The notes under the pieces were generated by a model, which had not been told where the DNA came from, searched no databases, and was given only the letters and a program-made list of their open reading frames with translations. Shown piece after piece: positions 37,325 through 49,924 of a stretch of DNA of 64,000 nucleotides. The stretch's first letter is position 1. Every line of letters starts with the position of its first letter. Source of the stretch: an uncultured Gammaproteobacteria bacterium (GTDB taxonomy: Bacteria > Patescibacteriota > Patescibacteriia > S139-126); contig CAZBLW010000002.1 of the NCBI GenBank assembly GCA_964493305.1, positions 76,677-140,676 on the forward strand, in the 5' to 3' direction. Position numbers and translations under genes: made by a program.

Positions 37325-38500
37325 ATGGAAGAACAAATACCAAAAAATATAAATGAAGAAAAATTAGATCTTGATGTTTCTGATGAAATTGTAGTCAAAG
37401 ATGAACAAGGTAATTTTCGAGTTTTAATCGGTGGTAGGTTGGAAGATTTACCAGCCGGTTTTGAAGTAGTAGAGAAAAAACCAACCGCGCCATCTAGTGA
37501 ATTATTTACCCAAGAAGGTTTAGTTAGCGAAGAAGAGTCAGCTGAACAATTAATGCCACCACCTCCGACTATTTGGCAAAAACAAGCTGGAGCGGCATTT
37601 TATTTTCATCCTGATGATGAAGAAGAAGTCAATCAAATTGCCGCAGACAAAGGTCTGGAAGCAAAAATTGATTTAGATCCAGCGGTTGATGAAATTATTA
37701 CCTTGAGTGGCGTCAGGCTTGCCAGTGAAAACAGCACAAAAAAAGTAAAAAATATCTTACTTGCCCGACTGAAACATGTTAGAGAGCAGGCAGAAACCAG
37801 AGATGCTCTGACTAGGTCAATGGCTGAAGGTGGAGCTGGTTTAAGTGAATCTGAAGCTGATGTTCTGATGTCTTTAGTGACGGAAAAAATTGAACAAATT
37901 GAAGCTGGTAAATATTCGCCACCAGCATCTTCGGAACTGGATAATTTAATAAAACAAGCTGACGATGTTTATAAATTCAATGAAGCAGATCAAGGACCGC
38001 ATGATAGATTGGCTGACACTTTAGCTCAAGTTAAACCAGAATTTACCCACCAACCCCAATGGCAAGAACCGGAGATAAAACAAGCTCCTAGTGAAATAAT
38101 AAATCCACCCCGTCCCAAAAGACCAATTCCAACAGATGTGAGACCAAGAGTGAGTGATGTTAGACCTATAGAAAGGGTGCGGGGACCGATTGAAGAGTTG
38201 AAATATATGAATTTAGCTGAGCTTCATCGTATCGGCACCAGTGCTTTGGATAATATTAGTCATATCAAGGATAAGATTGATGCACTAGAAGAAGAATCTT
38301 TCAACAAGAAAGTTGAAGGTATCAAAGCTTGGCGCCAATCACCACTTTATAATATGTATTTGGATATTGGCCGACAAAGTATGGAACAGGGAAAATCAAT
38401 CAGCCAAGTGATTAGAGAGCGAGAGCAGTTGGGCGAGGATATTTTATCAGTACAAGAGTTTGAAAAAATATCGGATTTGAATCAAGAGTTGAGGTATTAG
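37325..38500 (+). CDS. Acidic hypothetical protein (391 aa)
   Basis: Glu/Asp-rich with predicted coiled coil. Its stop codon is donated by the downstream palindromic repeat. Confidence 0.4.
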   Translation: MEEQIPKNINEEKLDLDVSDEIVVKDEQGNFRVLIGGRLEDLPAGFEVVEKKPTAPSSELFTQEGLVSEEESAEQLMPPPPTIWQKQAGAAFYFHPDDEEEVNQIAADKGLEAKIDLDPAVDEIITLSGVRLASENSTKKVKNILLARLKHVREQAETRDALTRSMAEGGAGLSESEADVLMSLVTEKIEQIEAGKYSPPASSELDNLIKQADDVYKFNEADQGPHDRLADTLAQVKPEFTHQPQWQEPEIKQAPSEIINPPRPKRPIPTDVRPRVSDVRPIERVRGPIEELKYMNLAELHRIGTSALDNISHIKDKIDALEEESFNKKVEGIKAWRQSPLYNMYLDIGRQSMEQGKSISQVIREREQLGEDILSVQEFEKISDLNQELRY

Positions 38501-38529
38501 CTTATGGCTTATGGCTTTTAGCTTTTAGG
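38497..38529. repeat. REP-like repeat, left-arm type (TTAGCTTATGGCTT...TTAGCTTTTAGG)
   Basis: A member of the 'agcttatagctt' family. It pairs with 38881-38917 on the other side of the four-helix-bundle gene. Confidence 0.55.
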
Positions 38530-38538
38530 TAGAAGAAA

Positions 38539-38901
38539 ATGGTAGAATCATATAAAGAATTGATAGTTTGGCAAAAAGGAATGGATTTAGTAGTTGCCAC
38601 ATATAAATTAATTGGTAAATTTCCTAAAGAAGAAATATTTGGATTGTCGATGCAGATGAAAAGGTCAGCAGTTTCAATCTCATCCAATATAGCTGAAGGC
38701 AGAAATAGAGGTACTAGAAAAGATTTTATTTATTTTTTAAGAATAGCATACGGATCTGGAGCTGAGTTGGAAACACAAATCGAGTTATCAAAAAGATTAT
38801 TTAATATAACATCAGAGAGTTATGCTGAAGTAGACGAGTTATTAATAGAAGTGATGAAAATGCTTAATAAAATGATAGCTAAGCTACAAGCTAATAACTA
38901 A
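38539..38901 (+). CDS. Four-helix-bundle protein ('23S rRNA intervening-sequence protein' family)
   Basis: MVESYKELIVWQKGMDLVVATYKLIGKFPKEE...SSNIAEG...FLRIAYGSGAELETQIELSKRL is characteristic of this family. The gene is embedded between inverted REP-like arms. Confidence 0.7.
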   Translation: MVESYKELIVWQKGMDLVVATYKLIGKFPKEEIFGLSMQMKRSAVSISSNIAEGRNRGTRKDFIYFLRIAYGSGAELETQIELSKRLFNITSESYAEVDELLIEVMKMLNKMIAKLQANN

Positions 38902-48485: not shown

Positions 48486-48491
48486 AATATT

Positions 48492-49841
48492 ATGAAACAA
48501 ATTTTTGCTTGTTCTAAGTGCGGGGCGCAATTTCAAAAATGGGAAGGTAGATGCCGTGAATGTGGAGGTTGGGGAACTCTACAAGAAGAAAATGTAGCTG
48601 TCCGCTCTGATAAAAAAGATAATACCAATTTTAATCCGCTCGGGGAGGCGGATATTGTTGATTTTAGCCAAGTGCAAGCTGGTAATATTAGGAGATTACC
48701 AGTAGGTGAACTAGAAATAGATAGAGTTTTAGGAGGTGGTTTGGTACCAGGTTCGCTAGTGCTTTTAGGCGGAGATCCGGGGGTAGGAAAATCAACTTTG
48801 GTTTTGCAAATTACTGATTATTTAGCCAAACAAAATAAAAATACCTTGTATGTATCCGGTGAAGAATCTGCCGAACAGGTAAAGGGGCGAATTGAACGAA
48901 TGAAAATAAACACTGCTAATTTGAAATTTATTGCCTCAACTCAAATAGGTGCAATTTGTGCAACTTTAACCAAACTCAAACCAGATTTAGCAGTTATTGA
49001 TTCTGTGCAAACTATGGTTTATGAAGAGGTAGAGACGGAAGCTGGAGGAGTATCACAAATTAGGGCAGTGGCAGCTAAACTTATGGAAACTGCCAAAAAA
49101 AATAATATTTGTATTATTTTAATAGGTCACGTTACTAAACAGGGTCGGGTGGCTGGTCCCAGAACTATGGAACATTTAGTTGATGTAGTATTGTACTTGG
49201 AAGGAGATAAACAACAACAATTTCGCATCTTACGATCAGTAAAAAATCGTTTTGGTTCAACGGGTGAAGTAGGGATATTTAAAATGGTTGCCAAAGGTCT
49301 AGAACCAGTCAAAGATCCAGCCGGAATTTTTATCCATAGTCAACAGTTTAGCCCCGGAACGATTCATTCGGTCATCTGGGAAGGTAGTCGCGCTTTTATG
49401 GTAGAAATTCAAGCTCTAACTTCTAGTACAAAATTTGGTTATCCCAAAAGAACTATCACTGGACTTGATTATAAACGAGTAGAGATGCTATTGGCAGTTT
49501 TGCAAAAAAGAGCGCAGATTTATTTAAGTAGTGACGATGTTTTTGTAAATTTAGCCGGAGGAATAACTAGTAAAGACACGGGACTTGACTTAGCTATTAT
49601 TTTAGCGATTGTATCAGCTAAAAAAAATATCACCACGTCTCAACCAACCCTAGCCTTGGGAGAAGTAAGCTTATCTGGCCAAATCAAAGCACCAGGGCAA
49701 CTAGAAAAAAGAGTTAGAGAAGCATCTCGCATGGGTTATCAAAAAATTATTATCCCTAAAATTAATATCAAAATTACCAGTAGTAAAGTGGAAATTATCC
49801 AAGTAGAAAATATTTTAGACGCAGTACAAAATAGCTTATAG
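48492..49841 (+). CDS. radA: DNA repair protein RadA/Sms
   Basis: N-terminal C4 zinc finger CSKCGAQFQKWEGRCRECGGWGT, RecA-like Walker A GDPGVGKST, KNRFG motif, C-terminal Lon-like domain. Confidence 0.9.
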   Translation: MKQIFACSKCGAQFQKWEGRCRECGGWGTLQEENVAVRSDKKDNTNFNPLGEADIVDFSQVQAGNIRRLPVGELEIDRVLGGGLVPGSLVLLGGDPGVGKSTLVLQITDYLAKQNKNTLYVSGEESAEQVKGRIERMKINTANLKFIASTQIGAICATLTKLKPDLAVIDSVQTMVYEEVETEAGGVSQIRAVAAKLMETAKKNNICIILIGHVTKQGRVAGPRTMEHLVDVVLYLEGDKQQQFRILRSVKNRFGSTGEVGIFKMVAKGLEPVKDPAGIFIHSQQFSPGTIHSVIWEGSRAFMVEIQALTSSTKFGYPKRTITGLDYKRVEMLLAVLQKRAQIYLSSDDVFVNLAGGITSKDTGLDLAIILAIVSAKKNITTSQPTLALGEVSLSGQIKAPGQLEKRVREASRMGYQKIIIPKINIKITSSKVEIIQVENILDAVQNSL

Positions 49842-49924
49842 CTGTTAGCTTATAGTTTTTAGGGAAATTATTAACTGTTTTTATCTGAAAGCTAATAGCT
49901 ACAAGCTAGAAGCTATAAGCTAAT
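49832..49924. repeat. REP-like palindromic element overlapping the radA stop (tagctgttagcttatag ... ctaatagctacaagctagaagctataagctaat)
   Basis: Same family as 38.5-42.1 kb. The last three RadA codons and the TAG stop lie inside the left arm. Confidence 0.6.

Follow-up and report, generated by a model that had tools for sequence, protein, structure and literature searches.

Hairpin-forming AGCT heptamer repeats of a Patescibacteriota genome: probable local family of a two-part mobile element related to rRNA intervening sequences

Results

AGCT hairpins and PF05635 genes in a T4SS-like region

The DNA analysed here (the window) is a stretch of 64,000 nucleotides of contig CAZBLW010000002.1 from a Patescibacteriota genome (assembly GCA_964493305.1). 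Its genes form an ordinary chromosomal set, including S15, polynucleotide phosphorylase (PNPase), leucyl-tRNA synthetase (LeuRS), KsgA, RecG, LexA and a string of PrgI, TraC and VirB4 genes resembling a type IV secretion system (T4SS), and no rRNA lies within the window. Several spacers of the T4SS-like region hold inverted repeats built on AGCT, which an earlier sequence-only reading had described as a family of palindromes of the repetitive extragenic palindrome (REP) type. That reading overlooked the seven-nucleotide period of the arms and a gene inside one hairpin, which encodes a full-length member of the family PF05635 ("23S rRNA-intervening sequence protein", IVP). The features of this region are as follows.

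38496-38528, + strand: 5' arm belonging to the full AGCT cassette, with about 4.6 TTAGCTT heptamers; the first unit holds the TAG stop (38498-38500) of a 391-aa gene
38539-38901, + strand: IVP1, 120-aa four-helix-bundle protein of PF05635 (23S_rRNA_IVP), E = 1.9e-36, 125 bits (cut-off 33.8)
38881-38917, + strand: 3' arm, of AAGCTAA units, belonging to the full AGCT cassette; its end, AAGCTATAAGCTAAT, lies 4 nt 5' of the PrgI start
40047-40126, + strand: AGCT hairpin without an open reading frame (ORF) at the junction of the TraC-like and VirB4-like genes, -24 kcal/mol, z = -4.4
42037-42102, + strand: ORF-less AGCT hairpin between VirB4 and the gene after it, -25 kcal/mol, z = -4.1
45966-46421, + strand: second cassette, with AATTTTT-type arms (45966-46023 and 46363-46421, detected as an inverted pair) around IVP2
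46024-46362, + strand: IVP2, 112 aa, PF05635, E = 4.5e-13, 49.8 bits
49825-49929, + strand: ORF-less AGCT hairpin between the convergent RadA-like gene (+) and a 107-aa ORF (-), -33.4 kcal/mol, z = -3.6

AGCTWWWAGCT has 10 matches where 0.18 are expected, a count reached in 0 of 100 shuffles, and all matches fall at 38903-49921; the hairpin-forming family is real and lies where the sequence-only reading had placed it. That reading counted at least five sites. The sites are all present and resolve into four inverted-repeat elements, one with a gene and three ORF-less, since a single element has 38497-38529 and 38881-38917 as its arms. The 5' arms are built of TTAGCTW and the 3' arms of WAGCTAA, each arm being a period-7 array of 3.3-5.1 copies according to Tandem Repeats Finder, and all four copies have the outer 3' end AAGCTATAAGCTAA without variation and share TTTTAG as the inner end of the 5' arm. 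In the gene-bearing element the arms pair over 33 nt with 82% complementarity and 355 nt between them (38496-38528 with 38884-38916). The arms of the ORF-less elements pair over 26 nt (40047-40072 with 40099-40124, 81% complementary), 23 nt (42038-42060 with 42071-42093, 91%) and 38 nt (49825-49862 with 49892-49929, 82%), and 0 of 200 shuffles folded as stably as any of these three. Clustered regularly interspaced short palindromic repeat (CRISPR) arrays look different from these elements, whose arms are inverted, whose units are contiguous 7-mers and whose sites lie 1-8 kb apart, in line with the earlier view that no such array is present.

As previously noted, two of the elements donate TAG stops: ORF 37325-38500 ends within the first arm unit of the full cassette, and the RadA-like gene 48492-49841 ends at 49839-49841 inside the last hairpin. 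Also as described before, the junction taattaccATG recurs after two 3' arms, at 38913-38923 and 40131-40141. Three of the four elements lie within a single co-directional gene string, 4-12 nt ahead of the next ATG. The 3' arm encodes the last codons of IVP1, and when 38485-38925 is folded to minimum free energy the two arms pair with the entire IVP1 ORF between them. The IVP2 arms likewise pair across their ORF, and the TAG stop (45963-45965) of the gene upstream of IVP2 adjoins the left end of that cassette. Both cassettes lie between protein-coding genes and not in a helix of 23S or 16S rRNA.

Protein families were searched in the window ORFs of at least 90 aa. IVP1 matches XCC0516 (PDB 2GSC, E = 2e-18), an entry that holds five chains; the solved homologue has been described as a homopentameric toroid (PMC4990558). 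A match of the IVP to bAvd (PF22296) reached 28.5 bits, under the 40-bit cut-off. The scanned ORFs included no gene for a transposase, a reverse transcriptase or RNase III, and their sole recombinase is a XerC/D-like gene 28 kb away. An Rfam scan of the hairpins gave only sub-threshold look-alikes of miRNA precursors, which amount to generic long hairpins.

Heptamer hairpins of other flavours occur throughout the window

Tandem runs were scored with test windows of 21 and 14 nt. The longer one gave 19 period-7 runs and none of periods 5, 6, 9, 10 or 11. The shorter one gave 26 period-7 runs, 23 of them mostly intergenic though 90% of the window is coding, compared with 0, 4, 10 and 3 runs of periods 5, 6, 8 and 9. 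The restriction to 38-50 kb proposed by the sequence-only reading therefore holds for the AGCT flavour and not for heptamers of other flavours, which are distributed over the whole window:

37199-37307, + strand: ORF-less AT-rich heptamer hairpin (AAATTAT / AATTTTA) at the junction where relative L166 has the IVP2 cassette; z = -0.9, not significant
53269-53358, no strand assigned: heptamer hairpin (ACTAATT / CATTAGT) between the recG start and tRNA-Arg, -21.1 kcal/mol, z = -5.9
10255-10354, no strand assigned: heptamer hairpin (AATTATA / TTTATAA) between tRNA-Arg and the XerC/D-like integrase gene, z = -2.2
19201-19242, 23343-23487, 24075-24158, 24959-24997 and 50258-50295: further heptamer arrays

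The non-AGCT flavours (AATTATA, AGAATCT, AAATTTT, TAGGRRT, AGAATTA and ACTAATT) stand between housekeeping genes or tRNAs, and no flavour-matched IVP gene accompanies them in the window. One further period-7 run, at 21673-21701 (ctagaatcaagaataaagaataaagagga), lies within the LeuRS ORF and has a flavour like that of the intergenic array 19215-19236; it could be due to chance or be an in-frame remnant.

The cassette occupies different junctions in related genomes

Orthologous junctions were compared in 80 metagenomic loci whose VirB4 is 71-98% identical to that of the window. The gene order g391-PrgI-TraC-VirB4-g195 is kept across them, and spacer lengths cluster in three groups, one below 40 nt, one of 40-290 nt holding hairpins of many different flavours and one of about 440-480 nt holding the IVP cassette. 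The presence/absence polymorphism for which the sequence-only reading had suggested a comparison of orthologous spacers was found here, and its proposal of a mobile element is supported, the family behaving as a mobile or unstable one: the same junction may be empty, hairpin-bearing or cassette-bearing. An IVP gene is located at the g391-PrgI junction in the window, L086, L090 and L140, at PrgI-TraC in L139, at TraC-VirB4 in L151, and after VirB4 in L087/L088 (VirB4 92% identical). At the latter two junctions the window carries the ORF-less AGCT hairpins 40047-40126 and 42037-42102, respectively. Conversely, L166 and L169 have AGCT hairpins at PrgI-TraC, where the window spacer measures 1 nt. 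Array copy number also varies between close relatives.

Gene and arms form a discrete unit, as the second cassette illustrates. L166 (GCA_964620905.1) has a copy with about 93% identity to window positions 45966-46421; the match takes in both arms and goes no further than their ends. This L166 copy has another place in the same operon, the junction matching the window interval between 37196 and 37325, where L169 has a 32-nt fusion of both arm ends. The junction that holds IVP2 in the window is occupied by ORF-less hairpins in L171 (from the genome of L166) and L173, and there the stop of the upstream gene is TGA, not TAG.

The elements are inserted precisely between stop and start codons, and the first, TAG-bearing unit often serves as the stop of the upstream gene. 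Median distances in the VirB4 loci are 6 nt from the stop to the beginning of an ORF-less hairpin and 8 nt from its end to the start codon; the stop is overlapped in 10 of 49 cases. Same-flavour ORF-less copies accompany the resident cassette; in L087 the flavour is AAATCAA at all four junctions, that of the cassette included.

Several other Patescibacteria (L006, L009, L018, L019, L023 and L031, and the metagenomic L090 and L140/L141) have an IVP cassette of differing flavour directly upstream of the PrgI-like gene of the T4SS-like operon, which points either to a site hit repeatedly or to one old insertion with later turnover of its arms. The spacers of L120, L129, L133 and L145 contain a G+C-richer palindromic motif around CCTTTATAAGG, for example ctcctttataaggag, which looks like a repeat family unrelated to the heptamers. 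Period-8 versions of the hairpin design are present in L092, L094 and L133, for example two copies each of TTAATTAG and CTAATTAA, or eight copies of AAGTCCAT.

Heptamer arms flank IVP genes across phyla

Each database search gave more than 4,000 PF05635 relatives, and 80 loci were sampled from one-genome-per-species contigs of Patescibacteria, Bacteroidota, Firmicutes, Gammaproteobacteria, Acidobacteriota, Nitrospira, Kiritimatiellae and others. By eye, nearly all 80 have flanking heptamer arrays, with variable positions that differ per locus. For 77 loci, flanks of 120 nt entered the statistics. Period 7 was the dominant enriched period, with 27 upstream and 26 downstream flanks, compared with 5 each for period 8, 2 each for period 9 and close to none for others. 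A period-7 array was present in a flank of 42/77 IVP genes versus 24/144 other genes of the same loci (odds ratio 6, p = 1e-8). Because G+C content confounds RNA duplex energies of own versus mismatched arm pairs, complementarity was scored by alignment of the upstream flank with the reverse-complemented downstream flank. The own-locus score exceeded the 95th percentile of mismatched loci in 49 of 77 cases and the 99th in 24.

The arms have a polarity, with TAG counts of 84 in 5' and 8 in 3' arms and CTA counts of 7 and 68. IVP genes are co-directional with the upstream neighbour in 66 of 76 loci and with the downstream neighbour in 57 of 68. Same-flavour ORF-less sites lie within 3 kb of 21 of the 58 clear-armed IVP loci, compared with 6.7% in a mismatched control. 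Flavour also tracks the protein, the AGCT flavour being found with 6/14 IVP1-type proteins versus 3/65 others (p = 7e-4).

Contrary to the earlier reading, the element class is not lineage-specific; it occurs across phyla, on viral contigs and in Xanthomonas. Seventeen viral contigs carry an IVP gene, most with the same arms. In Xanthomonas, an XCC0516-type gene lies between accB and accC (L192 1423-1875; L196 1423-1875), enclosed by GGGAATC / ATTCCC arms. The heptamers GGGAATC, GGGAGTG, GAGAATC and GGGAATC precede it, and CCCATTC, CCCATTC and, further on, CCTATTC follow it and adjoin the accC ATG.

IVP genes and arms are both conserved

Purifying selection acts on the IVP ORFs, and the arms are less diverged than synonymous sites. 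The ratio of nonsynonymous to synonymous divergence (dN/dS) is 0.10 for IVP2 between the window and L166 (dS = 0.35) and 0.14 for IVP1 between the window and L169, and only 3/57 and 1/57 positions have diverged in the two IVP2 arms, far below synonymous sites. These values indicate that protein and arm sequences are both maintained.

Discussion

Relation to known systems

We consider it likely, with a probability of roughly 0.75, that the AGCT repeats are the local family of a widespread two-part mobile element related to rRNA intervening sequences (IVSs). As part of the same reading, the full form would consist of a PF05635 IVP gene between two inverted arrays of 3-10 tandem heptamers, and the short form of the arms alone.

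One of the closest known counterparts is the 23S rRNA IVS of Coxiella burnetii and Leptospira (PMC4990558), which shares the PF05635 ORF, the terminal inverted repeats whose pairing yields a long stem and the co-directionality with the host transcript. The Coxiella IVS gene is preceded by 2-3 tandem GACAGAT heptamers, whose number depends on the strain, just as tandem heptamers precede the ORF in the window; its 28-bp terminal stem is cut by RNase III in vitro, within the stem at the first repeat (PMC4990558). In contrast, the window copies are found outside rRNA, between protein-coding genes of a T4SS-like operon, they have same-flavour ORF-less copies, and they sit at differing junctions in relatives. 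The window element departs from a classical IVS in its location and agrees with it in every other feature tested. IVP genes in rRNA insertions of the Candidate Phyla Radiation (CPR) are also on record in the literature.

A second counterpart is provided by published heptamer arrays. GGGAATC arrays are highly enriched in Xanthomonas, with 70 convergent pairs in X. campestris (PMC4692102), and it is these arrays that flank the XCC0516-type IVP gene at accB/accC. TAACTGA arrays of marine Beggiatoaceae, cyanobacteria and Bacteroidetes adjoin start codons, overlap ORF ends and carry stops in all frames (PMC4679880), and three tandem heptanucleotides are known from Calothrix PCC 7601 (cited in PMC4692102). 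In the published families and in the window, tandem 7-nt intergenic units often form convergent inverted pairs, and array length varies between relatives. The AGCT family likewise overlaps the end of the upstream ORF, adjoins the next start and has stops in all frames in the forward orientation. The published arrays were interpreted as G-quadruplex formers or translational signals, whereas the AGCT flavour cannot form G-quadruplexes. The searched text of PMC4692102 mentions no XCC0516, S23 or helix bundle, and in the searched text of PMC4679880 and PMC4692102 we met neither a link to a four-helix-bundle gene nor a mobile gene-plus-arms unit. In the literature covered, which is incomplete so that absence is not proof, there was no paper linking non-rRNA IVP genes to heptamer arms or ORF-less satellites.

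The enclosed protein also recalls Avd of diversity-generating retroelements, a nucleic-acid-associated partner protein with a homologous small four-helix-bundle fold. No reverse transcriptase accompanies it among the scanned window ORFs, unlike in those retroelements, whose template and variable repeats were not searched for.

Proposed mechanism

In the operon transcript, the arms would pair into a stem of 23-38 bp, which RNase III could cut as it does in rRNA IVSs, splitting the polycistronic RNA and freeing the IVP message. Stems of this length fit RNase III. By analogy with Coxiella, we give such cleavage slightly less than an even chance. Spread is a weaker part of the proposal; it probably makes use of the arms, by slippage inside an array and by recombination where two arms have the same flavour. 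The ORF-less hairpins would act as landing pads for it, and the IVP may recognise its own flavour.

A broader conjecture is that PF05635 proteins and the excess of heptanucleotide repeats in bacteria are two halves of one unrecognised element class. An Avd-like pentamer would recognise its own flavour and drive or guard the copying of arm pairs, gene included or not, into the gaps between stop and start within operons, with the rRNA IVS as a special case. RAYT-REPIN systems (REP-associated tyrosine transposases with their REP doublets) would then be a functional analogue, with a non-transposase protein here. We put this forward tentatively and would not bet on it.

Alternative explanations

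The layout of a gene inside inverted copies of a dispersed repeat resembles that of a RAYT, and short palindromes mobilised in trans by a transposase, as REPs, REPINs or MITEs (miniature inverted-repeat transposable elements), would be palindromic, intergenic and dispersed, with presence/absence polymorphism in relatives and flavours linked to gene copies, as seen here. However, the bracketed gene encodes a 110-120-aa four-helix bundle of PF05635 and not a Y1 (IS200/IS605-like) or other transposase, and the scanned window ORFs of at least 90 aa include no transposase and, as the only recombinase, the distant XerC/D-like gene. The arms are locus-specific tandem heptamers that vary in copy number and sequence between loci and genomes, with no single conserved palindrome or REP consensus, so the label REP-like does not apply in the strict sense. 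Inverted ends are present as in a MITE, whereas no target-site duplication was recognisable by eye at the compared insertion boundaries and no parent insertion sequence was found. We regard this explanation as very improbable. Even less probable is a neutral origin, with slippage producing heptanucleotide repeats in AT-rich spacers that have neither function nor a link to any gene. Heptamers are indeed reported to be the most over-represented class of long simple sequence repeats in bacteria, for which slippage has been proposed (cited in PMC4692102 and PMC4679880), and the variation in copy number between close relatives and the stems without G.U bias agree with it. Slippage leaves unexplained why same-flavour inverted arrays stand on both sides of one gene family, why TAG and CTA are polarised, why arms are conserved above synonymous sites, and why a cassette ends exactly at its arm ends and yet occurs at another junction. 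The suggestion that the hairpins are terminators fares worst, and we give Rho-independent termination next to no weight. The elements are stable stem-loops after stop codons, and one (49825-49929) separates convergent genes. Their stems are A+T-rich, however, no T tract follows any of them, and a terminator scan called none of the heptamer hairpins, though it called a canonical intrinsic terminator at 50328-50351 on the - strand (GACGGCTATGCCAATAGCCGTC followed by a T run), after gene 50358-50849. Most copies moreover lie in a co-directional operon just before the next start.

Two other explanations are less improbable. The hairpins may act in RNA without being cleaved, as barriers to 3'-to-5' exonucleases that set mRNA stability or as translational regulators masking the region before the start. 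REP sequences of E. coli act as mRNA stabilisers by blocking such exonucleases, and PNPase is encoded in the window. The hairpins are placed within co-directional operons, and at their median distance of 8 nt from the start a Shine-Dalgarno sequence would have little space; for TAACTGA arrays adjoining start codons, MacGregor proposed translational control (PMC4679880). This account lacks an RNA-specific pairing signature and leaves the enclosed gene, the mobility and the linkage of flavours unexplained. As a full explanation it is unlikely, and it is compatible with a mobile two-part element as an added effect. Somewhat better, though still doubtful, is the possibility that the arms are binding arrays, whose cognate heptamer duplex or hairpin is recognised by a pentameric, Avd-like IVP bundle that maintains, copies or regulates them. 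The match of ORF-less hairpins to the flavour of the resident cassette, the tracking of flavour with IVP subfamily, the purifying selection on IVP, the five-chain toroid of the solved homologue and the weak, sub-threshold bAvd match all point in this direction. Linkage of flavours is, however, equally expected if ORF and arms are inherited or copied as one unit, and many hairpin flavours of the window have no IVP gene within the 64 kb.

Several observations weigh against the two-part mobile element itself. The AT-only hairpins (37190-37315, 23340-23480 and 24070-24160) fold no better than shuffles, so that the structural argument there consists of repeat geometry only. In sense-strand stems, G.U and A.C mismatches number 47 and 65 for cassettes and 101 and 86 for ORF-less hairpins; with G.U in no excess, the stems bear no signature specific to RNA and might equally well act as DNA. 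About one third of the IVP loci have no clear arms at the thresholds used. For ORF-less hairpins the polarity is modest (TAG 38 versus 21, CTA 22 versus 36) and vanishes when TAA and TGA are counted, so the view of the arms as three-frame translation stops is partly supported. Neither a target-site duplication nor a recombinase for the spread was identified. The "empty" junctions of the IVP2 cassette already hold ORF-less hairpins, so that at some sites the change may have been either insertion or loss of the ORF. RNase III cleavage in this organism is proposed by analogy only.

Significance

What most merits further work here is the connection of heptanucleotide arrays with the IVP gene family. 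We know of no role for PF05635 proteins since their discovery in rRNA intervening sequences, and they are annotated merely as "four helix bundle protein". The excess of heptanucleotide repeats in bacteria is without explanation, and the present data tie it to PF05635. In streamlined CPR genomes, heptamer hairpins punctuate operons and replace stop codons. Earlier work has recorded IVP genes within cas operons (PMC3936711) and has reported them as CRISPR-associated by neighbourhood statistics (PMC3936711, PMC10910872). Insertion of a cassette between the genes of any operon may explain their presence in cas and further, unrelated operons and part of the signal in such guilt-by-association screens. 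The accB-IVP-accC arrangement of Xanthomonas, in which the cassette splits accB from accC, offers a culturable and genetically tractable system for the element.

Other features of the window

Positions 16205-16840 form a stretch of 636 nt that lacks ORFs of 90 aa or more as well as Rfam matches at the gathering threshold.

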